A stretch of 64,000 bases of DNA from NCBI GenBank assembly GCA_024400755.1, contig JAKSMG010000003.1, positions 48,596 to 112,595 of the forward strand, given 5' to 3'. The notes under the pieces were generated by a model. The model searched no databases, had not been told where the DNA came from, and saw only the letters and a program-made list of their open reading frames with translations. Position 1 is the stretch's first letter, and each line of letters opens with the position of its first letter. The stretch is from Bacteroidales bacterium (lineage in GTDB: Bacteria; Bacteroidota; Bacteroidia; Bacteroidales; WCHB1-69). This document shows, in pieces, positions 6,995-64,000 of this stretch. The position numbers were made by a program, and so were the translations under genes.

Positions 6995-7034
6995 CGGATA
7001 GTAGATTAAGTTATTTTTTAGTTTATTGATTTTG

Positions 7035-7042
7035 CAAAAATA
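7035..7042 (-). promoter_or_regulatory. -7 promoter box (TATTTTTG) for the LTD/T9SS gene
   Basis: The plus strand reads CAAAAATA, 41 nt upstream of ATG 6994. It lies back-to-back with the asd box. Confidence 0.5.
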
Positions 7043-7043
7043 G

Positions 7044-7051
7044 TATCTTTG
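7044..7051 (+). promoter_or_regulatory. -7 promoter box (TATCTTTG) for asd
   Basis: TAnnTTTG lies 51 nt upstream of the asd ATG. Confidence 0.6.
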
Positions 7052-7101
7052 CAGAATAAAAAACATCGTTGTTAATAACTTTTTATAAATTTTGAAAGAA
7101 A

Positions 7102-8094
7102 ATGAAAATAGCATTAGTTGGAGCCACCGGATTAGTCGGAAGTGTAATGTTAAAGGTCTTGGAAGAACGCGGATTTGGGAGCAATGAACTGATTGCCGCC
7201 GCCTCATCGAAATCGGTAGGAAAGAAATTGACTTTCGCCGGTCGCGAAATCACCGTGATAAGTGTTGAGCAAGCCATTGCGGAGAAACCCGACATTGCTA
7301 TTTTTTCAGCAGGCAGTGGCGCTTCGTTGCAATATGCACCGCAATTTGCCGCCCAAGGCACCTACGTCGTGGACAATTCTTCGGCGTGGCGTTACGAGAA
7401 GCACATTCCACTTATCGTGCCGGAAATCAATGGTGACGTCATCACTGCCGACGACCACATCATCGCCAATCCCAACTGCTCTACCATTCAAATGGTTTTG
7501 GCCTTGGCTCCATTGCATAATCAGTTCAAAATCAACAGATTAGTTATTTCAACCTATCAATCTGTAAGCGGGACAGGAGTAAAGGCCCTCAACCAACTTT
7601 TCAAAGAAAGGGAAGGTCAAGACTGCGAGAAGGCATATCCTTACAGAATAGACTTAAATTTATTGCCTCACGGCGGCACATTTGAAGACAACGGCTACAC
7701 CACCGAAGAGATGAAACTGGTAAAAGAAACCCGCAAAATCCTTCGTGACGACAGCATTCGCATAACGGCCACCGTAGTTAGAGTTCCCGTCACGGGAGGA
7801 CACTCAGAAGCCGTAAACATTGAATTTGAAAAAGACTACGAACTATCGGACATTTATCGCTTATTGAACGAAATGCCCGGAATCAAAGTCATTGACAATC
7901 CTGCCAACAACGAATATCCAATGCCTTACTTCGCCAAGGACAAAGATGAAGTTTTCGTAGGGAGAATCCGACGTGACGAATCTCAAGAAAAGGCACTAAA
8001 CATTTGGGTTGTCGCCGACAATCTTCGCAAGGGTGCCGCCACCAATGCGGTTCAGATTGCCCAACTGCTTTGCCAAAAGGGATTTGTAAAATAA
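7102..8094 (+). CDS. asd: Aspartate-semialdehyde dehydrogenase
   Basis: Has an N-terminal Rossmann motif (VGATGLVGS) and the active-site region IANPNCSTI. Length is 330 aa. Confidence 0.92.
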   Translation: MKIALVGATGLVGSVMLKVLEERGFGSNELIAAASSKSVGKKLTFAGREITVISVEQAIAEKPDIAIFSAGSGASLQYAPQFAAQGTYVVDNSSAWRYEKHIPLIVPEINGDVITADDHIIANPNCSTIQMVLALAPLHNQFKINRLVISTYQSVSGTGVKALNQLFKEREGQDCEKAYPYRIDLNLLPHGGTFEDNGYTTEEMKLVKETRKILRDDSIRITATVVRVPVTGGHSEAVNIEFEKDYELSDIYRLLNEMPGIKVIDNPANNEYPMPYFAKDKDEVFVGRIRRDESQEKALNIWVVADNLRKGAATNAVQIAQLLCQKGFVK

Positions 8095-18549: not shown

Positions 18550-20589
18550 ATGAAAAAACACTTTACCCTTATTTTCACGTTATTCCTGCTTCTCCTCCAG
18601 ATTCCCGCCTCCGCCCAGGGCGAATGGAAGTGGGCCAACTACTGGACGGGCAACGACGACCTGTTGAATCCATCTCACGCATATAACTATGTGGTGCGCA
18701 CCGCCTTTGATGATGACGGAAACGTTTATGTTTTCGGCAGCTTTGGCGGAAATGCCTTTCTGTATGACCAAAACCAGGAAATCAGATTCTCCGACAATCC
18801 CATTATTGAGTCTAATAGTTCTCCAGGCAATGTTTTGGCAAAATTCAACGCGCAAGGTGACTTGCTTTGGTATAAGTTTATCAAAAGCACAAATGGCGAT
18901 TGTCTTCCGTATGATATGGTTATCAAAGACAGTGTCATTTTAATTGCTGGTGAATATAGTTGGACCTATGCTCTGAACAAACCGTTTTGGTTTTTTGACA
19001 CGCTTATCACAGTGCAAACAGCACTTTCATATGGGAATGGAGCCTACCAACCTCCATTCACTTTTGGCAATTACTCTTACTTTGTTTATTTTGACCCTAA
19101 TGGCGATATCATTCAAAAACATTTTGTACAAACCAAATCGAGAGAATGCTATGGGAATACGCATGCAATAGCTCCACTAGGAAGCAGGTTTATAGGAGGC
19201 TATCCTATTTGTATAGATAACGACAACAACATCTACATCGCAGTAAGTATGCAATACGAAGGCAATGAATCTGACCCTTACGGCATAATAATAGATTGTG
19301 ACACCGCAAATATGTATAACATATATTTGCCAGGCAACTATTGTGGTTTGTCTCTAAACAATATTATGTTATATAAATTCGCTCCAGATTGGAGGTTGGT
19401 TTGGGGGAAACCATTGGTCCATCATACCGAAGGATTGTCCCCTGCAATCCCCACAGATACGGTGAATCCAAGTTTTAGGCCTTTTGTCGGGGGTATGAGC
19501 ATTGATAATCATGGTAACCTCTATGTGTCTGGTTATTTAATGGATATGTGGATAACTGATCAATACAACCAATACCCAATGTATATTTATTGGGACAACA
19601 CACATCGTGCAATCATAGATGATCATGGGTTGGCATTTTGCCTGCCCTTTATAGTAAAATATGATTCTGCGGGAACGGTGCAATGGTCGAATCAGGCTTT
19701 TATGAAACACGCACCCACGGCGACATGGTACAATAAGATATACTGGACAGACAACTGTGTCACAGAAAACAGTGTTTATCTTTTGGGGGATACAAGAGTA
19801 TCAGAAGGTTATAGTTCTTTATTCTATTTTGACAATGAAAATAATGACATGGATATTTCCCAATCATCATGCTATTTTGTCAGATTTAATAGAGAAAATG
19901 GAGGTTTTGAAAACAGTGGGGTTTCCCCCGGCGAAAAAACTTGTTTTGGTTCAGGGGAAACAGCTAAGCCTGCTGTTGTTAACAATCATCTTTTATGCTT
20001 GTCCAAAGATTTTTTCAACAGATATTTCATTTTAGGACAATTCAATACGAATGGCACATTTAAAAAAGGAGATACGATTGTAAACAATAGTGGTACAATG
20101 TCCGCTAATCAAGGAATTGTCTTAAACGAAACGGGATATCTTTTGAATAGTTTTATTTCAACTCAAGACCTGACTTTCGGCAATGACCTCACCCTCAATT
20201 TTGACGACCACCAACACAGTCACGCTGTTGTCGCATTACGTTACGACCCGTCCATCTTGGAACCCTACCCCGAAGACTCCACGGGCATTGCAGACCGTGG
20301 AAGTCTTAGCCGTGCGGTGGTGCGCGCGTATCCCAATCCCACCACGGACAAGGTGACGGTGGAGGTGATGATGCCCCTTGAGGATGACGAAATCTATTTG
20401 GGAGACGTCACCACCAATTACAATATGGAGCGTGTCACGGTCACTGACCTCACGGGGAAAGTGGTCTTGCAGCGCGCCGTGAGCGGCACCCGTGCGGAAC
20501 TGGACTTCAGCGCCCTGCCCGCCGGCACCTACATCATCACCGCAAGCGGCGAGATGGGCCAGTGGGAAGGAAAGGTGGTGAAGAAGTGA
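18550..20589 (+). CDS. Secreted beta-propeller (SBBP-repeat-like) protein with T9SS type-A C-terminal sorting domain
   Basis: Has a signal peptide (MKKHFTLIFTLFLLLLQIPASAQ). D-x-x-G-N/D-x-Y motifs recur (DDDGNVYVFGS, NAQGDLLWYK, DPNGDIIQK, DNDNNIYIAVS, DNHGNLYVSGY, DSAGTVQWS). The last ~85 aa (AYPNPTTDKVTVEV...LPAGTYIITA...GKVVKK) fit the Por secretion tail pattern. Confidence 0.75.
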   Translation: MKKHFTLIFTLFLLLLQIPASAQGEWKWANYWTGNDDLLNPSHAYNYVVRTAFDDDGNVYVFGSFGGNAFLYDQNQEIRFSDNPIIESNSSPGNVLAKFNAQGDLLWYKFIKSTNGDCLPYDMVIKDSVILIAGEYSWTYALNKPFWFFDTLITVQTALSYGNGAYQPPFTFGNYSYFVYFDPNGDIIQKHFVQTKSRECYGNTHAIAPLGSRFIGGYPICIDNDNNIYIAVSMQYEGNESDPYGIIIDCDTANMYNIYLPGNYCGLSLNNIMLYKFAPDWRLVWGKPLVHHTEGLSPAIPTDTVNPSFRPFVGGMSIDNHGNLYVSGYLMDMWITDQYNQYPMYIYWDNTHRAIIDDHGLAFCLPFIVKYDSAGTVQWSNQAFMKHAPTATWYNKIYWTDNCVTENSVYLLGDTRVSEGYSSLFYFDNENNDMDISQSSCYFVRFNRENGGFENSGVSPGEKTCFGSGETAKPAVVNNHLLCLSKDFFNRYFILGQFNTNGTFKKGDTIVNNSGTMSANQGIVLNETGYLLNSFISTQDLTFGNDLTLNFDDHQHSHAVVALRYDPSILEPYPEDSTGIADRGSLSRAVVRAYPNPTTDKVTVEVMMPLEDDEIYLGDVTTNYNMERVTVTDLTGKVVLQRAVSGTRAELDFSALPAGTYIITASGEMGQWEGKVVKK

Positions 20590-25043: not shown

Positions 25044-25802
25044 ATGAAAAAAACATTCCTTTCCATAATTCTCGTGACCGCAATTTCCGCATTTTGCCTA
25101 ACATCCTGCCATAAAGCGTCCTATCCTTCCACCGCGGAAGTCATTAAAGATGCCGTTACAGACTATGACGGCAATAAGTATGACGCGGTGAAAATCGGAG
25201 ACCAGGTTTGGATGGCTTCCAACTTGAAGACCAAACATTTTGCAAACGGCACAGAAATTCCGGAAAGCAAAACCACAGACTTAACCTCTGCAATGCGATA
25301 CAAACCCAAATGCACCAACAGTCAACTTCCCGATTTTGGCTTCTTATATAACTGGGAAGCGGCCGTAAATGGTGCCAAACCCAGTGCCAACTCCAATGAA
25401 AAAGTTCAAGGTGTTTGTCCTGACGGTTGGCATATTCCTACTTTGGCAGAATGGAAAAGTCTGATTTCTTACTTGGAAAGTGACAAGAAATATCAATCAG
25501 GAGACTCGTGTGCCAACATTGGCAAGGCTTTGGCTTCACAGAGCAATTGGAAAAGCTGCGGTACCGCCCACAGTGTAGGAAATCGTCCCGCCAGCAACAA
25601 TGCCACCGGCTTTACGGCAATGCCTGCCGGAACCTATTTCGGAACAAGTTTTTCCACCGGTGAATACGCCTATTTCTGGAGTGCCACTCCTTACGACAGC
25701 ACTTACGCCTACGGCACCTACTTATTTTATCGCTTTACCAATGCGACTACCAGTTTTGCCAACAAAGGGGACGGTTTTTCGGTACGTTGCGTGAAAGATT
25801 AG
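25044..25802 (+). CDS. Single-domain FISUMP (Fibrobacter succinogenes major paralogous domain) lipoprotein
   Basis: Has a lipobox (FCLTSC). The ordered family motifs are DGNKYDAVKIGDQVWMASNL, LYNWEAA, GVCPDGWHIPTLAEW, GKALAS..NW, GFTAMPAG, YFWSAT and GFSVRCVKD. Confidence 0.8.
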   Translation: MKKTFLSIILVTAISAFCLTSCHKASYPSTAEVIKDAVTDYDGNKYDAVKIGDQVWMASNLKTKHFANGTEIPESKTTDLTSAMRYKPKCTNSQLPDFGFLYNWEAAVNGAKPSANSNEKVQGVCPDGWHIPTLAEWKSLISYLESDKKYQSGDSCANIGKALASQSNWKSCGTAHSVGNRPASNNATGFTAMPAGTYFGTSFSTGEYAYFWSATPYDSTYAYGTYLFYRFTNATTSFANKGDGFSVRCVKD

Positions 25803-30977: not shown

Positions 30978-31016
30978 ATTTCATCCTCACAACATTACTT
31001 TTAGGCAAATATTTTT

Positions 31017-31237
31017 CGGAATTATCCCCCTCCGTCTTGCAAAGAGATTCCGATTTCGCTACGCTTCATCGGAATGGCGATTAATCATTAGGCAAGAAGT
31101 GGCGGCGGCACCCAACACGTACATTAACCTCCTATTTTGTGCCGCCGCCATTATACATACAAGGTATTTCGCCATTCCAACGTTTCCGACGTAAGGAGGG
31201 AACATCGGAATCTCAACAAGATTAAAATGGATAGTCC
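31017..31237 (+). repeat. Structured interspersed repeat, copy A (longest, most diverged)
   Basis: Shares three blocks with the copies at 42057 and 47840: CGGAATTATCC...TCTTG.AA.GAGATT, the conserved TCGGAATGGCGA loop, and CAACAAGATTAAA. The central GC hairpin is GGCGGCGGCAC/GTGCCGCCGCC. Confidence 0.75.
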
Positions 31238-40018: not shown

Positions 40019-42052
40019 ATGAATTTCAAGCTACACGCCCCTTTCGCGCCTTCCGGCGACCAACCCCAAGCCATCAAAGAATTGGTGGAGGGCCTGAGTC
40101 GTGGCGACAAAGCGCAAACACTCTTGGGCGTAACCGGTTCGGGCAAAACCTTCACCATCGCCAATGTCCTCAACGAAGTTAACCGCCCCGCCCTCATTCT
40201 CAGCCACAACAAAACCCTGGCAGCGCAATTATACAGCGAATTTAAGCAGTTTTTCCCCGAAAACGCCGTCGAATACTACGTTTCCTATTACGATTATTAC
40301 CAACCTGAAGCCTATATTCCTACCACCAATACCTACATCGAAAAGGACTTGGCTATCAATCAGGAAATTGACAAACTGAGGATGCACACGACTTCCTCAC
40401 TGCTTTCCGGCCGACGAGACATTGTGGTCGTCGCATCCGTTTCCTGCATTTACGGCATTGGCAATCCCGACGATTTTGCCCAAAACGTCATCAATATCCA
40501 TAAAGGGATGACCATTGACCGCGACCAACTTTTATATGCTTTCGTTTCCGGTTTATATTCTCGCACCGAGCTGGGACTGGAACCAGGAAAATTCCGCGTG
40601 AAAGGCGATACGGTGGATATTTTCCCGCCTTACAACGACACGGCTTTCCGCATCGTCTTTTTTGATGATGAAATCGAAGATATTTTTGAAATTAATCCTG
40701 TATCAGGAGATAAAATTAATAAACTGAATCTGCTTACGCTTTATCCGGCCAGTATCTTTGTAACATCTCAAGATTCTATGAATAATGCGATTGCGGAAAT
40801 CAAAATGGATCTGGACACCCAGATACAATATCTTCATTCTTTAGATAAACATTTGGAAGCCAAACGATTAGATGATCGTGTGAATTACGATATCGAAATG
40901 ATGAAAGAATTAGGGTATTGCTCCGGCATTGAAAATTATTCTCGCTATTTCGACCGACGCAAACCAGGAGAAAGACCATTCTGCATTTTAGATTTCTTTC
41001 CTGATGATTTTATCTTGATTATTGACGAAAGCCACGTTACCGTGCCGCAAATCGGCGCGATGTATGGCGGTGACCGCTCCCGCAAAATCAATTTGGTGGA
41101 TTATGGATTCAGACTGCCCGCCGCATTGGATAACCGTCCTTTGAAATTCAATGAATTTGAATCATTAATTGGGCAAACCATTTTTGTGAGTGCCACCCCT
41201 GCCCAATACGAATTAGATAAATCCGACGGTGTAATTATTGAGCAAATTGTCAGACCAACCGGCTTGTTGGACCCACCTATCGAAGTCCGACCCGCCATCA
41301 ATCAAGTTGATGATTTGCTTAACGAAATTGAATTGACGGTTGAAAAAAAACAACGGGTTTTGGTCACCACATTGACCAAAAAGATGGCGGAAGAGCTCAA
41401 TTCCTACCTTCTTCGCATTGGCATTCGGTCCAAATATATTCATTCTGAAGTTGAAACTTTGGAACGCATTGAAATTCTCAAAGACTTGCGTGCCGGTGCC
41501 ATTGACGTGCTGGTTGGCGTGAACCTGCTTCGTGAAGGCATTGACCTGCCAGAAGTTTCCTTAGTGGCCATTATGGATGCCGACAAAGAGGGTTTTCTTC
41601 GAAACGAACGCTCCTTGACCCAAACCGCAGGACGTGCCGCACGTCACGTAGATGGTCGCGTGATTTTCTATGCCGAGCACGTCACTAAGTCAATGCAGGC
41701 CACCATTGACGAAACGCTGCGGCGAAGAACGAAACAATTGGCTTACAACGAAAAATACCACATCATCCCGAAAACCGTCATCAAGTCGGATTCCATCCCT
41801 GCGGAAATAGATCATAAACGCTTTGAAAAAGTGGATGCTTTTGAGTATAAAAACCACGAAAAAGCAACTTCCATCGCCGCAGAACAAGCCATTGACTACA
41901 AGATGTACAACATCGAGCAACTACGTGCCAGTGCCAAAAAATTACGCAAACAACTGGAAAATGCGACCAAGGAACTGGACTTTATGCTGGCCGTCAAACT
42001 TCGTGACGAAATCATTGAAATCGAAAAACTTATCGCTGAACAAAAAGCATAA
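40019..42052 (+). CDS. uvrB: Excinuclease ABC subunit B
   Basis: Has the Walker A motif GVTGSGKT, helicase motifs, and a C-terminal UVR domain (LAVKLRDEIIEIEKL). Confidence 0.95.
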   Translation: MNFKLHAPFAPSGDQPQAIKELVEGLSRGDKAQTLLGVTGSGKTFTIANVLNEVNRPALILSHNKTLAAQLYSEFKQFFPENAVEYYVSYYDYYQPEAYIPTTNTYIEKDLAINQEIDKLRMHTTSSLLSGRRDIVVVASVSCIYGIGNPDDFAQNVINIHKGMTIDRDQLLYAFVSGLYSRTELGLEPGKFRVKGDTVDIFPPYNDTAFRIVFFDDEIEDIFEINPVSGDKINKLNLLTLYPASIFVTSQDSMNNAIAEIKMDLDTQIQYLHSLDKHLEAKRLDDRVNYDIEMMKELGYCSGIENYSRYFDRRKPGERPFCILDFFPDDFILIIDESHVTVPQIGAMYGGDRSRKINLVDYGFRLPAALDNRPLKFNEFESLIGQTIFVSATPAQYELDKSDGVIIEQIVRPTGLLDPPIEVRPAINQVDDLLNEIELTVEKKQRVLVTTLTKKMAEELNSYLLRIGIRSKYIHSEVETLERIEILKDLRAGAIDVLVGVNLLREGIDLPEVSLVAIMDADKEGFLRNERSLTQTAGRAARHVDGRVIFYAEHVTKSMQATIDETLRRRTKQLAYNEKYHIIPKTVIKSDSIPAEIDHKRFEKVDAFEYKNHEKATSIAAEQAIDYKMYNIEQLRASAKKLRKQLENATKELDFMLAVKLRDEIIEIEKLIAEQKA

Positions 42053-42056
42053 AATT

Positions 42057-42225
42057 ACGGAATTATCCCTTTCCGTCTTGTAAAGAGATTCCGACTACGC
42101 TATGCTTCGTCGGAATGGCGATGAGTCATTAGTCAAAAAGTAGCGGCGACGGAACACAACTGCGATATAGTTCGGTCACGGTGTCGCCGCAAACATCCCA
42201 ACAAGATTAAAAGGGATAATTCCGT
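42057..42225 (+). mobile_element. Structured interspersed repeat, copy B (intact, MITE-like)
   Basis: Has perfect 13-bp terminal inverted repeats (ACGGAATTATCCC ... GGGATAATTCCGT), directly flanked by AAAATT on both sides (42051-42056 and 42226-42231). Internal hairpins are present. There is no ORF. Confidence 0.65.
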
Positions 42226-42265
42226 AAAATTTTTAAAAAACACCCCCGCATGTCGGATAATTGAT

Positions 42266-43943: not shown

Positions 43944-45083
43944 TTAAAATTTTCTTCTTACCAAGTCACAAAGTGATAAATACGCCGAGGAAGTTGAATC
44001 CCAAAAATACTGCTTTTTCAGGCCTTCCATAATGTCAAAGGCCTCTTCAATATCCTGACAATTATTCAACGTTTGAATGGCACGACTAAATTCTTCACTC
44101 TTATTTTTGAACAACTCCCTAATAAACAAAAATTTATCATTAATCGTCATGGCCTTGGTCAAATCCACAACCTTTTTCTGCTGAAATTTGTCACCAAGCG
44201 AATTTTCCCTTTTCTGCTCATTAAACAAATCGTTGAGCGAACGCTGTTGCGGTTTTTCAGCGGCCGGAACTACTTCAACTTGCTGTGCCGGCTTGGGTTC
44301 TGGGATAGCCGGTTTTGCCTCCGGTTTCACCACTACCTGCTTATCTTCCTGCATAGTCGGCTTAGGTTCCGATTTTGCAGGTTCTTCAACTTTAGGTTTG
44401 ATTTCGGGAATTTCCATTTTAGGTTCTGAAACCGTAACTTTATGACTATCAACTTGTTTAACCTCTGGCTTAACTTCTAGTTTAACCTCTGTTTTGGGCT
44501 CCGGTTTAACTTCTGGTTTAGGCACTGGCTTAACTTCTGGCTTGGGCTCCGGTTTAACCTCTGGCTTGGGCTCTGGTTTTGCTTCTACCTTTGCTTCCGT
44601 CTTTACCACCGGCTGGCTTTTTGTTTCCACTTTAGGTTGTGGCGTAAGAAATTGCAGAATATCCGAATCCATCTCGTCAAGATCTTCTACCTGCGGTTTC
44701 TCACTTTTTATGGAAATTTTTTCAACGACAGGTTTTTCTTCCTTACGAGGAACCTCCACTTGCGGCTCAACTTTCTTTTCAACAACCGGCGATTTTTCAA
44801 CAGCAGGCGTTTCCTTAACTAGCGACACAGGTTGAACCGGCATAACAGTGGGCTTGGTTTCCATCACCGCCATTTCCTTCTTTTCCGTTTCCGGCTTAGG
44901 ATTGATTTCCGGTTTTTGAACCGTTGGAACACTACTCACCTGATTTCTCAAAATCAGCAAATAGGCTTCGCGAAGATTTTGAAGCACGATATCCTTTTCA
45001 ATTTGAGAAAAATCACTCTTACTGTTCTTGATAAGCGTAAGATTATCAATGATTTGATTTAATAATTCGTCCTTATTCTGCAT
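43944..45083 (-). CDS. Hypothetical protein with central Pro/Glu/Lys/Val-rich repeat region
   Basis: Has structured N- and C-terminal regions flanking about 200 aa of low complexity, including KPEPKPEVKPEPKPEVKPVPKPEVKPEPK. The start is either ATG 45083 or ATG 45134, and promoter spacing favours 45083. Confidence 0.55.
   Translation of the reverse strand: MQNKDELLNQIIDNLTLIKNSKSDFSQIEKDIVLQNLREAYLLILRNQVSSVPTVQKPEINPKPETEKKEMAVMETKPTVMPVQPVSLVKETPAVEKSPVVEKKVEPQVEVPRKEEKPVVEKISIKSEKPQVEDLDEMDSDILQFLTPQPKVETKSQPVVKTEAKVEAKPEPKPEVKPEPKPEVKPVPKPEVKPEPKTEVKLEVKPEVKQVDSHKVTVSEPKMEIPEIKPKVEEPAKSEPKPTMQEDKQVVVKPEAKPAIPEPKPAQQVEVVPAAEKPQQRSLNDLFNEQKRENSLGDKFQQKKVVDLTKAMTINDKFLFIRELFKNKSEEFSRAIQTLNNCQDIEEAFDIMEGLKKQYFWDSTSSAYLSLCDLVRRKF
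44467..44598. repeat. Eleven tandem 12-nt units inside the Pro/Glu/Lys-rich CDS
   Basis: Plus-strand units read GGCTTAACTTCT / AGTTTAACCTCT / GTTTTGGGCTCC and so on. They encode (K/E)PEV-type tetrapeptides on the minus strand. Confidence 0.8.
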
Positions 45084-45122
45084 AATAAAAAACTTCTTCG
45101 AGGAATAATCCCGATAATTTAT

Positions 45123-45130
45123 TAATTTTG
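45123..45130 (+). promoter_or_regulatory. -7 promoter box (TAATTTTG) for tdk
   Basis: TAnnTTTG lies 58 nt upstream of ATG 45188. Confidence 0.5.
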
Positions 45131-45147
45131 CCATTTGAAAAAGCGTT

Positions 45148-47796: not shown

Positions 47797-47839
47797 AGGA
47801 AAAACAATGAAATATAAAAAAATGCAACATTAAAAATAT

Positions 47840-48004
47840 CGGAATTAGCACCTTTCTTCTTGTAACGAGATTTCAACTTCGCTATGGTTCGTCGGAATGG
47901 CGACGAACCATTAGGCAAGAAGTGGCGGCGACGGAAAGCAACTGCGATATTGTTCGGACACGGTATCGCCGCAAACATTTCAACAAGATTAAACGAGATA
48001 ATCC
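47840..48004 (+). repeat. Structured interspersed repeat, copy C
   Basis: Collinear with copy B over its full length. It has a perfect 10-bp hairpin (ATGGTTCGTC-GGAATGGC-GACGAACCAT) and degenerate termini. Confidence 0.75.
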
Positions 48005-48041
48005 AGACAAAAAATGACAACTTTGCAAGACGGATAAGGTA

Positions 48042-48128: not shown

Positions 48129-51100
48129 ATGAAAAAACTATTATGCTGTGTGCTTTTCGCACTATTTCTACTTCCATTGGCTGTAATGGGTCAGTACGGA
48201 ACTGAAAATCTGACAGCACAGGATGCTGAAGGTCACACCTTCAGTTCCGTGAAAGTGGGTCCTCACTGCTGGTTGAAACCCAACCTTTCAATCAAGCTGG
48301 ACAGCAGTAAAATCTACAAATCGGAGATGTATCCCGACACAGATGCCAACCTGGCCACTTTCGGTCGTTTGTACAACTGGTACACGGCCATGAATGTGCA
48401 GCCCGGACAAAGCCCCGTGGTCGGCGAACACGGCTTCGTGCAAGGTATCTGCCCCGAGGGGTGGCACCTTCCTACCGAAGCTGAAACCCGTGAACTGATG
48501 AACTATGACGCCAAAACGCTACACGCCACAGAGCATTGGTTCGTACCCGGTACCAACACCACTGGCTTCACCATGCTTCCCGGCGGTTACTACAACGCCA
48601 TGAAGAAATATGGCGAAAACTTGGGCGGTGACTGCTATATGTGGTCCGCACAGAGTCTGGATCCCTCCAACCCGACCGTGATCTGGTCCGACTGCCACTG
48701 TGAATATTTCTTGGTGAACAGGGGTTCAGCCGTCAATGGCATGTCGGTACGCTGCGTGTATAAAATTTACCAGGGCGAGATAACTACCGACTCTGTAAAA
48801 GAAATCACCGACCAATCCGCCACGCTTTATGGAACGGTTGCCTTCAGTGGCTATGACGAAGAATACGAACGCGGCTTCGTGTATGGTACCAATCCCAACA
48901 ACCTGGATCAATGGGCAGTGGAAAGCTCAACGGCTTCTGAGGAGACAGCTCCTTTCAACAAGGAAATCACGGGCTTAACCGTTGCAACTACTTACTATTA
49001 TCAGGCCTATATCATCAATGATTTCGACACCGCCTGGGGAGAAATAAAGGACTTCAAAACACTACAAATGCAGGTTACCACCGACAGTGCCAACAATATC
49101 ACGCATTATACTGCCACTTTGCATGGCACCTTAACCCATTTGTCATACCCCAGCGTGAATGTCGGCTTCAAGTACGGCACAAGCGAAGATGCACTGACTT
49201 TTATTTCAGAAGTTGAGTCTCGTAATACCACAGGTCAATATTCGGCAAATCTCAACGGACTTACCGAAGGAACCACCTATTTTTTCAAGGCTTTCACAGC
49301 CAATGGAACTGACACCGTTTATGGCGAAGTGAAGAGTTTCATCACAAAGGATATAGCAGTGGCAACAAACGCTGCCACCGACATAAGAAGCACTGCCGCC
49401 ACATTGAACGGAGAGTTGACAATACTCAAGGGTTATGAAAATGCCAATGTCGGTTTCCGCTACGGACAGTATAAAGATTATATGGTATTCTTTGCTGATG
49501 AACAACCTATGACCAGCACGGGACCATTTGCCTTTGACTTATCAGACATTTCACCCAACACGACCTACTACTTCCAGGCCTACGCCTACAACGGCACCGA
49601 CACCGCCTGGGCAGCCGATACCTTAGACTTCACTACACCAACCGTTCCTTGCCTGGGTGCAGTAAGAGCCAACGAGCGCGGTACCACCGATGCTATCGAC
49701 TCCGTATTAGACGTTGATGGAAGCGCATATATTACCGTTCAAATCGGCGACCAGTGCTGGATGGCCCAGAACCTGAGGACGACGAAATATGCCGACGGCA
49801 CCTCCATTTCCTTGGGCAGCACCACGAGCACAGAAACAGCTTATCACTACTATCCCACCGGCAGCAGTAGCAACGTGAGCAAGTACGGTTATCTGTACAA
49901 TTGGAAGGCGGTGATGGGCAACTCCACCAGCAGTGAAACTAACCCCAGCGGAGTGCAGGGCATCTGTCCTAAAGGCTGGCACGTGCCGAGCGATACGGAG
50001 TGGACACAGCTGACCAACTACGTAAGCAGTCAGAGCGAGTACGTGTGCGAAAGTATCAACACTTACAACGCCAAGGCGTTAGCCTCAACCACGGGGTGGA
50101 ACAGCAGCTCAAACACTTGTGTCCCAGGCAACAATCCGTCAGACAACAACGCCACGGGTTTTTCTGCTGTTCCTGCGGGCTACTACAGCGGCAGCTACGG
50201 CAGTTTCGGCGACGACGCGCACTTTTGGTCGGCTACCCAATACTATAATAGCTACGCCTACTCCCGCTACGTGGACTACAACTACGCAGACGTGCACAAG
50301 TACAACTACGAGGAGTACTACGGATTCAGTGTCCGCTGCCTCCGTGATCCAATGACCGTTACCACCGACAGTGCAACTGCCGTGACGAAAGAATCCGCCA
50401 CCTTGAACGGAACGGTGAAGAGTTTGGGTAAATATACCGAAGTGAAAGCCGGATTCAAGTATGGGCAATCTGCTAAAATGATGGTGTTTAAGACAGAAGA
50501 AACAAGTAAGGATACAATTGAAGCATACAGTGCCAACCTTAATTCCTTGGCTCCCAATACCACCTATTTCTATCAGGCATACGTTTGTACTCCAGGTGAT
50601 ACCGTTTATGGTAACATACTAAATTTCACCACACCGACTGTTCCTTGTCTGGTTACTCCAAGACAAAATGAACGTGGTGTCTCTAATGCCATCGATTCTG
50701 TAATAGATAATGAAGGCAACCACTATATTGTCGTTCAAATCGGCCGACAGTGCTGGATGGCCCAGAACCTGCGCTGCACTAAGAGCCCGAGACAAGGTAC
50801 GGGAGCTGGACAGATTGACCTGAAACTTGGCGGATCAAATTATAATAATTTCCAACCCTATTATTATGCTCCATCTAAAGCACACGTTGCCACTTATGGG
50901 TACCTGTACAACTATCCTGCCGTGGTTGATACGATGGGTAGTGTTACTGCAATGCCGACAAAGATTCGCAGGGGTATCTGTCCTGAAGGTTGGCATGTGC
51001 CAAGTGACGGAGAATGGTTTGAATTGGAGAAAGAAGTAATGGGTATGACGACGGCAGACAGCGCGACAAATGGAGGATATAGAGGTAGTGGTGTCGGTAA

Positions 51101-54100
51101 GTTAACGGGAGGTTATGATATTTGGCCTGTTAATGTTTCGGCAACGACTTCAACTCCTGAGAATTATTCTTATGAAAATCGTAACAGCAGCGGTTTTTCA
51201 GCACTTCCGGGTGGTGATATAAAAGAGGGCTCACTCATAAATGTTGGTGGATATGCGTATTTTTGGAGTGCGACTTCGGCATCTTCAACGAAAGCCTGGA
51301 GTAGAACTTTTATGCATAGCAAGGAGGGTTCTTATCGTAATGATTATGATCGTAGCCGTGGGTACTCCGTTCGTTGCGTGCGAGACACAACGGCTATTAC
51401 CACCGACAGTGCCAACACCATCACCAAGAACAGTGCCAAGTTGCACGGCAATGTGATTTCTTTGGGTTATACCGAAATGAAAGTCGGTTTCCGCTACGGA
51501 CAGCAACCGAACCAGATGACTATCAACGCTGAAAAGGCAGATGCGATTACGGCCGCAGGACCCTACAATGTGGATTTGACAACCCTTGCTCCCAACACAA
51601 CCTATTATTTCCAAGCATACGCCTGCAACGGCACCGATACCGTCTGGGCAGCCGATATCTTAGACTTCACAACGCCAATCGCTCCTTGTTTGGGTACACC
51701 TAACGCCAACGAACACGGCACAACAAATGCTATCGACGCCGTTACCGATTACCAGGGCAACAGCTACCTCACCGTTCAAATCGGCAACCAATGCTGGATG
51801 GCTCAGAACCTGAGGACGAAAGTGGGAGAAAAAACCGATGGTGATTTCGGTTATCCTACAACCGGTAATGACACAATAACCTACGGTCATCTATACTCCT
51901 GGAATGCCGTCACGAAGGGCGCTTCCACGACTTATCCTATGAATGCGACAGATACATTGGTACACGGCATTTGCCCGGCAGGTTGGCACGTACCGAGTGC
52001 CAATGAGTGGGACACGCTGACCTATTGTGTATATTATAGCACAAATCCCGATTACAAATGTTCTGGATGCAGCTCTGAAAGTTGGACACAAAATACACCT
52101 TGTATCGCCAATGCCTTGGCTTCAGTCACCGGTTGGATTAGTAGTAGCACAATCGAATGCAGTGCCAGCAATATAAGCGACAAATCGAATGCCACCGGCT
52201 TTGCAGCTATTCCTGCCGGCCACTACACCAACAAATTCTTCGAATTCGGCACCAACGCCTACTTCTGGAGTGCTACCGAAAAAACGAATACAGCATGGTG
52301 TAGGTATATATCCAGTTCCGAATCCTACGTGAACAGCAAAGTCAATAGCAAGAATAATACCGGCTATTCCGTCCGCTGTCTCCGCGATCCAATGATTGTT
52401 ACCTCCGACAGCGTTACCACCGTTACCAAAAACAGCGCCAAGTTATACGGCAATGTGATTTCTTTGGGTAAATATACCGAAGTGAAAGCCGGTTTCCGTT
52501 ACGGACAACACTCGAACTATATGACCTTCAAGGCTGAAAGGGCCAACGCGATTACGACTGCGGGTTCATATAATATTGATTTATCAACCCTTGCTCCTAA
52601 CACCACCTACTATTTCCAGGCCTATGCCTGCAACGGCACCGACACCGTCTGGGCAGCCGATACCTTGAACTTTACTACACCGACTGTTCCTTGTCTAGGT
52701 ACTCCAAAACAAAATGAACGTGGTGTTTCTACTGCCATCGATTCTGTAATAGATAATGAAGGCAACCACTATATTGTCGTTCAAATCGGCCGACAGTGCT
52801 GGATGGCCCAGAACCTGCGCTGCACTAAGAGCCCGAGACAAGGTACGGGAGCTGGACAGATTGACCTGAAACTTGGCGGATCAAATTATAATAATTTCCA
52901 ACCCTATTATTATGCTCCATCTAAAGCACACGTTGCCACTTATGGGTACCTGTACAACTATCCTGCCGTGGTTGATACGATGGGTAGTGTTACTGCAATG
53001 CCGACAAAGATTCGCAGGGGTATCTGTCCTGAAGGTTGGCATGTGCCAAGTGACGGAGAATGGTTTGAATTGGAGAAAGAAGTAATGGGTATGACGACGG
53101 CAGACAGCGCGACAAATGGAGGATATAGAGGTAGTGGTGTCGGTAAGTTAACGGGAGGTTATGATATTTGGCCTGTTAATGTTTCGGCAACGACTTCAAC
53201 TCCTGAGAATTATTCTTATGAAAATCGTAACAGCAGCGGTTTTTCAGCACTTCCGGGTGGTGATATAAAAGAGGGCTCACTCATAAATGTTGGTGGATAT
53301 GCGTATTTTTGGAGTGCGACTTCGGCATCTTCAACGAAAGCCTGGAGTAGAACTTTTATGCATAGCAAGGAGGGTTCCTATCGTAATGATTATGATCGTA
53401 GCCGTGGGTACTCCGTTCGTTGCGTGCGCAATCTGGAACCTATTTCCGTCACTACCGATAGTGCCAACAACGTTGCCAGTACCGAAGTCCGTCTGCACGG
53501 CAATGTAACCTCTTTGGGTACATACAACAATGTGTATGCCGGTTTCAAGTACGGCACAAGCGAAAGCACACTTACTTCCATCGCTACTGTCGAATCTGTA
53601 ATAACCACTACCGGCAGATTTAGCTGCGACATTACTGGTCTTTCCGCCAATACCCAGTATTATTTCAAGACCTTTGCTGCCAACGGCACCGACACGGTAT
53701 ATGGCGAAGTGAAGAACTTCAAAACGCTATCCTTTTGCCCCAATACTCCCACCGTTACCGATATTGACAACAACATATATAACACGGTGCAGATAGGGCA
53801 GCAGTGCTGGATGAAAGAGAACTTGCGGACAACGAGGTTTGCCGACGGCACCCCCATCTCCTTGGGCAACAGCAAGAGCACCTCTACGGCCTACCGCTAC
53901 TATCCCAACAATGACAGCAATACTGTGAGCACATACGGTTACCTGTACAACTGGAGGGCAGCGATGCGCTACTCCTCCTCTTCAGAGAACAATCCCAGCG
54001 GGGTGCAGGGCATCTGCCCCACGGGCTGGCACTTACCGAGCGATGCGGAATGGACGCAACTGACCGATTATGTGAGCAGCCAAAGCCAATATCGATGCGA

Positions 54101-54407
54101 TGATAATACTGACTACATATCCAAGTCATTGGCCGCCACTTCAGGTTGGAGACAGGACTATTTCGCTTGTGCTATTGGCAACTATCAATTCCTCAACAAC
54201 GCCACGGACTTTTCAGGTGTTCCTTCGGGCGACTACGCCGGCGACTACGCTCTTTTCGCCAACAGTGCCTACTTTTGGTCAACTACCAAACCCGCTAACG
54301 ATCATAACGACGCCTTCATCCGCCTCTTGTACTACAACTCCGAACGCATGTTAAGAAACCACAACCCCATTGACTTCGGATATGGTGTTCGTTGCCTCCG
54401 TAACTAA
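48129..54407 (+). CDS. Giant secreted modular protein with six FISUMP domains interleaved with seven Ig-like modules
   Basis: An uninterrupted 2092-codon ORF with a signal peptide (MKKLLCCVLFALFLLPLAVMGQ). FISUMP motif sets (QIG.QCWMAQNL, YGYLYNW, GICP.GWH.PS..EW, GFSA.PAG, YFWSAT, GYSVRC.R) recur at approximately 48.2-48.77, 49.65-50.35, 50.64-51.38, 51.68-52.39, 52.69-53.43 and 53.73-54.40 kb. They are separated by ~95-aa modules of the form TTDSA..IT...A.L.G...LG......GF.YG..........TTYY.QAY..NGTDTV. Confidence 0.85.
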   Translation: MKKLLCCVLFALFLLPLAVMGQYGTENLTAQDAEGHTFSSVKVGPHCWLKPNLSIKLDSSKIYKSEMYPDTDANLATFGRLYNWYTAMNVQPGQSPVVGEHGFVQGICPEGWHLPTEAETRELMNYDAKTLHATEHWFVPGTNTTGFTMLPGGYYNAMKKYGENLGGDCYMWSAQSLDPSNPTVIWSDCHCEYFLVNRGSAVNGMSVRCVYKIYQGEITTDSVKEITDQSATLYGTVAFSGYDEEYERGFVYGTNPNNLDQWAVESSTASEETAPFNKEITGLTVATTYYYQAYIINDFDTAWGEIKDFKTLQMQVTTDSANNITHYTATLHGTLTHLSYPSVNVGFKYGTSEDALTFISEVESRNTTGQYSANLNGLTEGTTYFFKAFTANGTDTVYGEVKSFITKDIAVATNAATDIRSTAATLNGELTILKGYENANVGFRYGQYKDYMVFFADEQPMTSTGPFAFDLSDISPNTTYYFQAYAYNGTDTAWAADTLDFTTPTVPCLGAVRANERGTTDAIDSVLDVDGSAYITVQIGDQCWMAQNLRTTKYADGTSISLGSTTSTETAYHYYPTGSSSNVSKYGYLYNWKAVMGNSTSSETNPSGVQGICPKGWHVPSDTEWTQLTNYVSSQSEYVCESINTYNAKALASTTGWNSSSNTCVPGNNPSDNNATGFSAVPAGYYSGSYGSFGDDAHFWSATQYYNSYAYSRYVDYNYADVHKYNYEEYYGFSVRCLRDPMTVTTDSATAVTKESATLNGTVKSLGKYTEVKAGFKYGQSAKMMVFKTEETSKDTIEAYSANLNSLAPNTTYFYQAYVCTPGDTVYGNILNFTTPTVPCLVTPRQNERGVSNAIDSVIDNEGNHYIVVQIGRQCWMAQNLRCTKSPRQGTGAGQIDLKLGGSNYNNFQPYYYAPSKAHVATYGYLYNYPAVVDTMGSVTAMPTKIRRGICPEGWHVPSDGEWFELEKEVMGMTTADSATNGGYRGSGVGKLTGGYDIWPVNVSATTSTPENYSYENRNSSGFSALPGGDIKEGSLINVGGYAYFWSATSASSTKAWSRTFMHSKEGSYRNDYDRSRGYSVRCVRDTTAITTDSANTITKNSAKLHGNVISLGYTEMKVGFRYGQQPNQMTINAEKADAITAAGPYNVDLTTLAPNTTYYFQAYACNGTDTVWAADILDFTTPIAPCLGTPNANEHGTTNAIDAVTDYQGNSYLTVQIGNQCWMAQNLRTKVGEKTDGDFGYPTTGNDTITYGHLYSWNAVTKGASTTYPMNATDTLVHGICPAGWHVPSANEWDTLTYCVYYSTNPDYKCSGCSSESWTQNTPCIANALASVTGWISSSTIECSASNISDKSNATGFAAIPAGHYTNKFFEFGTNAYFWSATEKTNTAWCRYISSSESYVNSKVNSKNNTGYSVRCLRDPMIVTSDSVTTVTKNSAKLYGNVISLGKYTEVKAGFRYGQHSNYMTFKAERANAITTAGSYNIDLSTLAPNTTYYFQAYACNGTDTVWAADTLNFTTPTVPCLGTPKQNERGVSTAIDSVIDNEGNHYIVVQIGRQCWMAQNLRCTKSPRQGTGAGQIDLKLGGSNYNNFQPYYYAPSKAHVATYGYLYNYPAVVDTMGSVTAMPTKIRRGICPEGWHVPSDGEWFELEKEVMGMTTADSATNGGYRGSGVGKLTGGYDIWPVNVSATTSTPENYSYENRNSSGFSALPGGDIKEGSLINVGGYAYFWSATSASSTKAWSRTFMHSKEGSYRNDYDRSRGYSVRCVRNLEPISVTTDSANNVASTEVRLHGNVTSLGTYNNVYAGFKYGTSESTLTSIATVESVITTTGRFSCDITGLSANTQYYFKTFAANGTDTVYGEVKNFKTLSFCPNTPTVTDIDNNIYNTVQIGQQCWMKENLRTTRFADGTPISLGNSKSTSTAYRYYPNNDSNTVSTYGYLYNWRAAMRYSSSSENNPSGVQGICPTGWHLPSDAEWTQLTDYVSSQSQYRCDDNTDYISKSLAATSGWRQDYFACAIGNYQFLNNATDFSGVPSGDYAGDYALFANSAYFWSTTKPANDHNDAFIRLLYYNSERMLRNHNPIDFGYGVRCLRN
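50631..51382 (+). repeat. Intragenic near-identical repeat, copy 1 (FISUMP module 3)
   Basis: Matches 52677-53428 at an offset of exactly 2046 bp. I found 6 mismatches by eye, 5 of them in the first ~70 nt, plus T/C at 51326/53372. The stretch 50697-51325 is identical to 52743-53371. Confidence 0.9.
52677..53428 (+). repeat. Intragenic near-identical repeat, copy 2 (FISUMP module 5)
   Basis: See copy 1. The track's identical off-frame ORFs 50827-51039 and 52873-53085 independently confirm the identity. Confidence 0.9.
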
Positions 54408-62879: not shown

Positions 62880-64000
62880 TTATTGTTTTATGATTTTTAT
62901 ATTTTGATGATTAACTTGAAGAATGTATAATCCGTTTGTAAATTCTTGAATATCAAATTGATAATTATCATTATTGATTATTTCGCGCCGTAATTCCTGC
63001 CCAAAAGCGTTGTAAAGTACAGCGGTTTTTCCATTTTGTCCTGAAACCATGAATTGATTTTGGCAAGGATTGGGATAAACCCGCAAATTATTCAAATTAA
63101 AATCAGTTATTGCATCGGGAGTCCCATGAATTGCGGAAGTATCGCCATGTAGGACGGCCACACCGGATAAATCAAAACCGCCTGATGCAAAAGGGGTTGG
63201 GTATGGATCATTGATTAAGCGGCCGTTCTTGTCGCGACTGCCGTATTGCGGGTCGATACTGCCCACCACGTCAATCAGTTTCACATGCGTAATGTTGTTG
63301 ATGTCGAGTTCAACGCTGTCTTGCAATTCCTCTAAATCGAAAGGAGTTCCGTAGCCAACACGATACTTTCCAGCCAAATTATTGATAAGACGGGCATCTA
63401 CACTGCCGGCATTATTAATTTGCGTATCAATTTGCGTATTTGAAGTAGCGGGAAAACGATAATAATGAATGCCGTCGGAGCTGACTTCCACAAAAGCCAA
63501 TTCCAAAAACACATCATTGAGGGAATTTTCAAAAACGGCAAAGTCATAGCCTTCCCCATTGATAATAGGCGTTTCAAAGGTGAGGATGGCAACACCACCA
63601 TCACCCAAACTGACAGCGTCCGCCGTAGAAGTGGAAGCCGGTCCGACACCTGCGCTTTCAGAACCGTATGAAGTCAATAACCCTCCTGTCGCAATATCTT
63701 GATAACCACGACTAATTACACAAGACGTTGCCCACGCTAAAATTCTTGAATCTTGATAATATATTGCCTGACAGCCTTCCGAACCCACCGGGCCATCAAA
63801 AGTATTGGTATCGGTTGGAACATCGGGAGGATCAATAGGTCCAACAGGAGGGGTATTCGGATCGCTGACGGCAATAATGTTGGCCGGAGTTGTGCAATTG
63901 CCCCATTCCTGCATTTCGAAAAAGTCCCCGTCATGCAGATAGTCGTCCAAGCCCATCGCCCAATTGCCATTATACGTATATGTCAAACTGCCAGCCGAAA
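62880..64000 (-). CDS. Secreted protein with T9SS type-A C-terminal sorting domain (5' end beyond the window)
   Basis: The reading frame remains open to position 64000, and the track start at 63986 is an internal TTG. The C-terminal ~80 aa (LRVYPNPCQNQFMVSG...GLYILQVNHQNIKIIKQ) fits the Por secretion tail. The stop lies 1 nt before the receptor start. Confidence 0.6.
   Translation of the reverse strand, partial: SAGSLTYTYNGNWAMGLDDYLHDGDFFEMQEWGNCTTPANIIAVSDPNTPPVGPIDPPDVPTDTNTFDGPVGSEGCQAIYYQDSRILAWATSCVISRGYQDIATGGLLTSYGSESAGVGPASTSTADAVSLGDGGVAILTFETPIINGEGYDFAVFENSLNDVFLELAFVEVSSDGIHYYRFPATSNTQIDTQINNAGSVDARLINNLAGKYRVGYGTPFDLEELQDSVELDINNITHVKLIDVVGSIDPQYGSRDKNGRLINDPYPTPFASGGFDLSGVAVLHGDTSAIHGTPDAITDFNLNNLRVYPNPCQNQFMVSGQNGKTAVLYNAFGQELRREIINNDNYQFDIQEFTNGLYILQVNHQNIKIIKQ

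Follow-up and report, generated by a model that had tools for sequence, protein, structure and literature searches.

How can two segments of one gene be nearly identical in their DNA when everything that surrounds them has diverged? The question is raised by a locus in a metagenome-assembled genome (MAG) of a Bacteroidales bacterium. We analysed a stretch of 64,000 nucleotides (nt) of this genome (assembly GCA_024400755.1, contig JAKSMG010000003.1, positions 48,596 to 112,595 of the forward strand), which is called the window below and in which position 1 is the first letter. It carries an open reading frame (ORF) for a protein of 2092 amino acids (aa), identical to MCQ2270038.1 (MJZ52_02265), and both near-identical segments, FISUMP modules 3 and 5, lie within it. 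We put the probability at roughly 60% that the interior of module 5 was overwritten by that of module 3 through intragenic gene conversion in the lineage of the window, the two modules being an old pair that has been kept alike.

Extent and edges of the near-identical pair

A module map of the protein was drawn from conserved motifs. With F for a FISUMP domain and I for an Fn3/Ig-like module, a signal peptide is followed by F1 I1 I2 I3 F2 I4 F3 I5 F4 I6 F5 I7 F6, i.e. 6 FISUMP domains and 7 Fn3/Ig-like modules (Table 1). Six stretches of the protein matched PF09603 (Fib_succ_major) of Pfam with 633 bits at a cut-off of 33.9, and six stretches matched TIGR02145 of NCBIfam with 587 bits at a cut-off of 41.65. 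The spacers scored above the cut-offs of Fn3-type profiles, namely Pur_ac_phosph_N with 66.6 bits (cut-off 30), fn3 with 33.8 bits (25) and PhoD_N with 31.6 bits (30). When F3 was aligned with 39 other FISUMP sequences, the invariant residues W42, G115-C117-P118-G120-W121-H122, W212-S213 and R248-C249 were found to be kept.

The repeat coincides exactly with FISUMP modules 3 and 5, which are referred to as copy A and copy B. Ungapped alignment of the copies at their offset of 2046 nt yielded 6 mismatches in 752 nt. In copy A these are located at 50651, 50653, 50662, 50681, 50686 and 51332, so that five of the six are in the first 56 nt; the types of mismatch are G>A, T>G, G>A, C>T, A>C and T>C. 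Between the fifth and the sixth mismatch there is a core of 645 nt with 0 differences. If 6 differences were placed randomly, a clean run of this length would have a probability of about 2e-5. A first-pass annotation of the window, made by eye, had counted the same 6 mismatches in 752 bp with 5 of them in the first ~70 nt, and our recount agrees. The identical stretch it had given, 50697-51325, turned out to be slightly longer.

Outside the tract the similarity is lost at once. At the same offset, blocks of 100 nt were 16-36% identical, which is chance level, and the edges are sharp to a few bases on either side. At the 5' edge the residues N-F-T are common to both copies yet are spelled with different codons, and at the 3' edge identity stops right after the codons for ...SVRCVR. 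F3 and F5 share 98% of their amino acids, as compared to 35-53% in every other pair of F modules. The flanking spacers have diverged, with 59% aa identity between I4 and I6, the ungapped nucleotide identity of which is at chance level, and 43% between I5 and I7. Thus two earlier statements, that the Ig-like flanks are diverged and that the homogenised tract is limited to the FISUMP module itself, were borne out.

The offset of 682 codons is in frame because two copies of one coding module share one ORF, and no extra coincidence is involved. A recent tandem duplication of the large block F-I-F-I was also considered as the origin of the pair. It was rejected as the would-be partners I5/I7 and F4/F6 are each 43% identical, like random pairs.

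Another candidate was a diversity-generating retroelement (DGR), of which the two copies would be the template repeat and the variable repeat. In the literature (PMC5758913) FISUMP and DUF1566 form a C-type-lectin class among the surface-exposed domains that DGRs target, and this listing of Fib_succ_major/DUF1566 speaks for such an element. However, there was no reverse transcriptase match among the ORFs of at least 150 aa in the window, and no repeat of 100-150 nt ties the gene to a non-coding template. Furthermore, both copies of the 752-nt repeat are coding, and the differences between the copies are not adenine-specific. Because reverse transcriptase, template repeat and adenine specificity of the mismatches are all missing, we excluded a DGR, and the probability left to it is negligible.

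Table 1. Positions of the features of the FISUMP gene and of further genes in the window (numbering of the window)
Feature	Position	Strand	Description
ORF	48129-54407	+	2092 aa, single frame containing both repeat copies; from ORF list and translation
F1	48192-48764	+	FISUMP module
F2	49641-50348	+	FISUMP module
I4	50349-50630	+	Ig/Fn3-like, directly upstream of copy A
Repeat copy A = F3	50631-51382	+	aa 835-1085, TPTVPCL...SVRCVR
Identical core, copy A	50687-51331	+	645 nt, 0 differences
Spacer block I5-F4-I6	51383-52676	+	unique, 1294 nt, separates the two copies
I5	51387-51677	+	Ig/Fn3-like, downstream of copy A
I6	52389-52676	+	Ig/Fn3-like, directly upstream of copy B
Repeat copy B = F5	52677-53428	+	aa 1517-1767
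Identical core, copy B	52733-53377	+	645 nt, putative conversion recipient
I7	53429-53729	+	Ig/Fn3-like, directly downstream of copy B
F6	53730-54404	+	FISUMP module, C-terminal
GldB	56528-57586		gene in the window
T9SS sorting-domain gene	4400-7207	-	CHU_C or Por_Secre_tail
T9SS sorting-domain gene	18550-20589	+	CHU_C or Por_Secre_tail
T9SS sorting-domain gene	62880-63986	-	CHU_C or Por_Secre_tail

Comparison with a second strain

The same gene in the same neighbourhood was found on a 404-kb contig of an independent megahit assembly from another sample (L001; ENA ERZ27247122). The two genes are of equal length (2092 aa) and 98.1% identical at the nucleotide level. The alignment of window and L001 extends over 16.3 kb with zero frameshifts and a single internal indel, a 24-nt tandem-repeat polymorphism. 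Divergence between the strains is patchy along the locus, with 0-7% difference per 500 nt; in the spacer block between the two copies it was 0-1.7% per module.

In the following, W stands for the window, L for L001, and A and B for the two copies of the repeat; repeat sites are numbered within its 752 nt. The copies of L001 differ from each other at 31 of 752 sites (LA-LB) and those of the window at 6 (WA-WB). Between the strains, the differences amount to 12 for WA-LA, 25 for WB-LB, 18 for WB-LA and 29 for WA-LB. Each copy of the window has fewer differences from its paralogue than from its orthologue. A-versus-B differences that are common to both strains occur at the tract edges only (repeat sites 22, 31, 50, 55 and 701), and since these edge differences are shared, the duplication that gave rise to F3 and F5 is older than the strain split. 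The earlier suggestion of a recent duplication or ongoing gene conversion was thereby split. Recent duplication was discarded because the A/B differences predate the separation of the strains, and gene conversion was favoured over chance or conservation by the 31 versus 6 differing sites.

The interior of the repeat has a different pattern. There are 20 sites unique to LB, 19 of which fall into repeat sites 116-436, and in this same interval LA and LB are distinguished at 19 sites at which WA and WB both agree with LA. Seven sites are unique to LA (137 and 487-680) and one is unique to WB. At 5 sites (230, 246, 252, 356 and 473) both copies of the window differ from both copies of L001. Signs of concerted evolution were thus present in that paralogues are closer than orthologues, the tract is discrete and substitutions occur in both copies of one strain only.

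A single conversion from A to B would explain these site patterns. F3 and F5 would then have arisen by an old, module-precise duplication and represent a FISUMP subtype detected nowhere else, and non-reciprocal homologous recombination between the copies in one ORF would keep them alike by concerted evolution. In the lineage of the window one recent conversion would have replaced the interior of module 5 by that of module 3, with a tract of between 321 nt (repeat sites 116-436; 50747-51067) and 645 nt (repeat sites 56-700; 50687-51331). The event would have erased about 20 older differences and carried 5 new substitutions into both copies, and only the edges of the tract would have escaped.

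Under the assumption of this conversion, the difference between WA and LA is 12/645 or 1.9%, equal to the gene-wide divergence of the strains. Because the core has 0 differences between the copies as compared to 12 between WA and LA, the conversion would fall within approximately the final quarter of the period after the strain split, as judged by a Poisson bound. Comparison with an orthologue had been proposed in the first-pass annotation as a way to date the event, and L001 served this purpose.

A third strain was looked for on several routes. In metagenome and genome contig collections an exact 29-mer of the repeat core had 0 matches, and protein-guided scans of such collections reached 40-45% identity at best and yielded no third strain. 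Word-index protein searches with F3 and with I5-F4-I6 gave best identities of 46-49%; they recover only proteins of query-like length, so that long proteins are missed. When 1.84 billion representatives were scanned exhaustively with HMMER, 38,788 FISUMP relatives were retrieved, with an identity to F3 of at most 47%. Across the collections searched, the F3/F5 subtype is no more than 47% identical to any other FISUMP module.

Several points weigh against this overall reading of a binding protein with a recently converted module. The extra homogenisation is known from one MAG assembly, and all collections searched contain two strains only, hence there is no outgroup that would polarise the changes. 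In repeat sites 437-700 there are no LB-unique sites, although mutation in the LB lineage alone should have produced about 2.4 (P about 0.09). This empty stretch calls either for an earlier homogenisation of that half of the repeat or for chance. In addition, the structural model of F3 has no significant match in the PDB, and a ligand-binding role is something we infer.

The dependence on one MAG raises the issue of an assembly artefact. In this case the copies would in reality differ by about 4% as they do in L001, and the bubbles in the assembly graph would have been merged into one consensus path that was walked twice. The surviving differences are indeed all close to the edges, no more than 56 nt from the left one and 51 nt from the right one, where a k-mer graph still separates the copies. 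The graph would have one Eulerian path, so that the repeat could be emitted twice without spanning reads. The mixture of states in the interior, LA at 19 sites and LB at 7, fits a merged consensus, and the 5 window-specific sites shared by both copies would arise under collapse as well. On the other hand, the agreement of window and L001 over 16.3 kb without frameshift implies a high base-level quality, and the 7 sites with LB state (137 and 487-680) are more simply regarded as LA-specific mutations. Judging from the spacing of the sites, a k of about 55 would chain sites 581-680 to the right flank and prevent a collapse. Module-confined identity of at least 96% was also seen in L001 and in two unrelated genes (L080 and L081, see below), the copies of which are non-identical. 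A 773-kb contig in a MAG of apparently the same series is a possible hint of long reads. An assembly or polishing artefact had been named from the outset as the alternative to a biological origin. For the underlying identity of at least 96% the independent assembly of L001 ruled it out; for the extra homogenisation in the window we consider it unlikely, with a probability that is nevertheless appreciable.

The patchy divergence of the strains is also what an import of segments predicts. The near-identity might be ancestral, with homogenisation or duplication shortly before the split, and LB would later have taken up a diverged patch of about 320 nt from a distant strain. The crowding of 19 of the 20 LB-unique sites in repeat sites 116-436, corresponding to about 6% difference, is in line with this. 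Yet the donor strain would have to carry a diverged copy of a module subtype that was detected nowhere else, and the 5 sites that separate both window copies from both L001 copies would need further conversion. Moreover, an import would still require module-confined homogenisation and would alter its timing, not its mechanism. We thus regard the import as quite improbable and favour the view that F3 was copied onto F5 in the lineage of the window.

Probable exchange of modules among FISUMP genes

In both composition and phylogeny the gene is a mosaic. The signal peptide, F1 and I1 make up its first 309 aa (48129-49055), and these match a paralogue (P0003 = MJZ52_04340) on another contig of the same MAG with about 97% identity, after which the two diverge abruptly, as seen by comparison at the protein level. 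These N-terminal 309 aa are nearer to P0003 than to the orthologue L001 (96%/93%). The similarity to P0003 suggests that an N-terminal cassette was exchanged between the genes. Three cluster fragments (P0122-P0124) were N-terminal pieces with the signal peptide of P0003; they were set aside as uninformative on F3/F5. F2 and F6 are 92% and 89% identical, respectively, to modules of P0002, a gene from a different MAG. Judged by their sequences, modules appear to pass between FISUMP genes.

The GC content at third codon positions (GC3) of F3/F5 is 0.37 and thus inside the range of the genes in the window (0.36-0.53). The GC3 of F1, F2 and F6 is 0.65-0.70, well above that of all other genes in the window. 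A mobile or foreign origin of F3/F5 was considered and rejected, as their GC3 is normal and neither an ORF on the opposite strand nor inverted repeats were present.

Near-identical modules are not restricted to this gene. Internal repeats were compared in 121 related proteins with a length of 800 aa or more, in which the best internal identity had a median of 67%. Apart from the protein studied here, four reached 95% aa identity or more across a minimum of 195 aa, and one further protein reached 94.9%. Two of the cases are unrelated multi-module FISUMP genes. L080, a gene of an environmental Bacteroidetes MAG, has a ~660-nt tract (~1870-2530) that is 96-97% identical at an offset of 3951 nt. 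In L081, from another MAG, a tract of about 570 nt (~358-928) with an identical run of 360 nt has an offset of 993 nt. Both tracts are confined to the module and have a sharp 3' end after ...VRC. The recurrence of near-identical tracts indicates that duplication or conversion at the level of modules is a repeated habit of FISUMP proteins.

More speculatively, and with low confidence, the multi-module FISUMP genes of gut Bacteroidales may be linked by recombination into a network, with modules being copied from one paralogue to another as well as inside a single gene, at conserved junctions (...FTTPTVPCL and ...SVRCVR). If so, the repertoire and the valency of surface binding would be reshuffled in the manner of cassettes, and F3/F5 would be one such event caught in the act.

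Other multi-module FISUMP proteins of Bacteroidales and Bacteroidota likewise alternate FISUMP and Fn3-like modules. Many FISUMP relatives end in a sorting tail (PF18962) of the type IX secretion system (T9SS), unlike the 2092-aa protein, in which Pfam did not find a C-terminal T9SS sorting domain (PF18962 / CHU_C) and the C-terminus is formed by F6. We conclude that the organism has a type IX secretion system because the window contains three genes with sorting tails in addition to GldB. The neighbouring genes are housekeeping genes, i.e. PfkB, CinA, peptidase S51 and GldB.

A single-domain FISUMP gene of 252 aa is located at 25044-25802 on the plus strand of the window, and its product is 31% identical to F3. 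An intergenic element of about 170-190 nt is present in three copies (31014-31107, 42051-42229 and 47833-48011), which are 82-86% identical. A GCGGCG...CGCCGC stem is conserved in the element, which also contains a TTCCGA...TCGGAA hairpin and is without match in Rfam. About 118 nt separate the end of the third copy from the start of the FISUMP gene downstream. A small RNA, a regulatory element and a repeat similar to repetitive extragenic palindromes (REP) are all conceivable. Finally, a 12-nt tandem repeat (44435-44602) lies inside an ORF on the minus strand (43944-45134), a gene without Pfam match. Here the window is 24 nt or two units longer than L001, a real in-frame length polymorphism between the strains.

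Function, length variation and known systems

The AlphaFold model of F3 had a predicted local distance difference test score (pLDDT) of 81.5 and a predicted template modelling score (pTM) of 0.82. A Foldseek search of the PDB with this model gave no match at E <= 0.001. The best match was the C-terminal domain of Legionella Lcl (8q4e), which with E = 0.015 over 43 columns is not significant, and further non-significant matches were scattered entries of C-type lectin-like domains (CTLD). A phmmer search of the PDB sequences found no match. Pfam reported a weak Lcl_C match of 36.6 bits in the 2092-aa protein. Presumably the FISUMP domains bind ligands, and we infer that the protein is a large secreted or surface-located multivalent binding protein.

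Near-identical modules in one frame also bear on the number of modules. Unequal crossing-over between the repeats could delete or duplicate an in-frame block F-I-F-I of 2046 nt, a unit that consists of one repeat copy plus I5-F4-I6. The first-pass annotation had pointed out this consequence, and its arithmetic (2046 bp = 682 codons, dropped or added in frame) was correct. Forms of 1410 aa or 2774 aa with high identity were not found; about 15 billion proteins hold two full-length orthologues, both of 2092 aa. Direct repeats of 645-752 nt are adequate substrates for RecA-dependent unequal exchange, and rare deletion or duplication variants are therefore expected. There is no sign that switching is programmed or frequent.

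Provided that the conversion is real, homologous recombination reshapes the large modular FISUMP proteins of uncultured gut Bacteroidales one module at a time, which bears on the diversification of surface binding proteins in these bacteria. The locus is also a warning of how easily multi-module FISUMP genes can be mis-assembled in MAGs. No new mechanism is opened up by it, as repeats in bacterial surface proteins are already well known to evolve in concert. Rather, it is a new instance of a well-known process, concerted evolution among the modules inside one gene for a bacterial surface protein.

The closest parallels are the streptococcal alpha C/Rib proteins, staphylococcal SasG/Aap, Bap and the M proteins, which are known for concerted evolution and variation in repeat number. 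RecA-type recombination is the accepted cause in such surface-protein repeats; it is in frame and changes the number of modules. Like these proteins, the FISUMP gene has modules that are near-identical in DNA inside one secreted or surface ORF. The repeats of the alpha C/Rib type are tandem and numerous, whereas here two copies stand 1294 nt apart and the other modules are 35-53% alike. In further contrast to that type, no length variation was observed in the two strains.

A likeness also exists to DGR targets with CLec2-type domains, e.g. Legionella LdtA, with which the FISUMP modules share the superfamily, surface exposure and a presumed lectin-like fold (PMC5758913). Unlike targets of the LdtA type, the gene is without reverse transcriptase, template repeat and adenine-directed variation, and homologous recombination would take the place of mutagenic retrohoming.

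In Neisseria pilE/pilS, Borrelia vlsE and Treponema tprK, antigenic variation proceeds via segmental gene conversion from silent cassettes. The FISUMP gene would resemble these systems in the non-reciprocal transfer of a coding segment and in the resulting mosaic surface protein, with modules that are also common to other genes. It differs from them in that there is no array of silent cassettes and no sign of high frequency or programming. Unlike in silent-cassette systems, the donor and the recipient are both expressed parts of one ORF.

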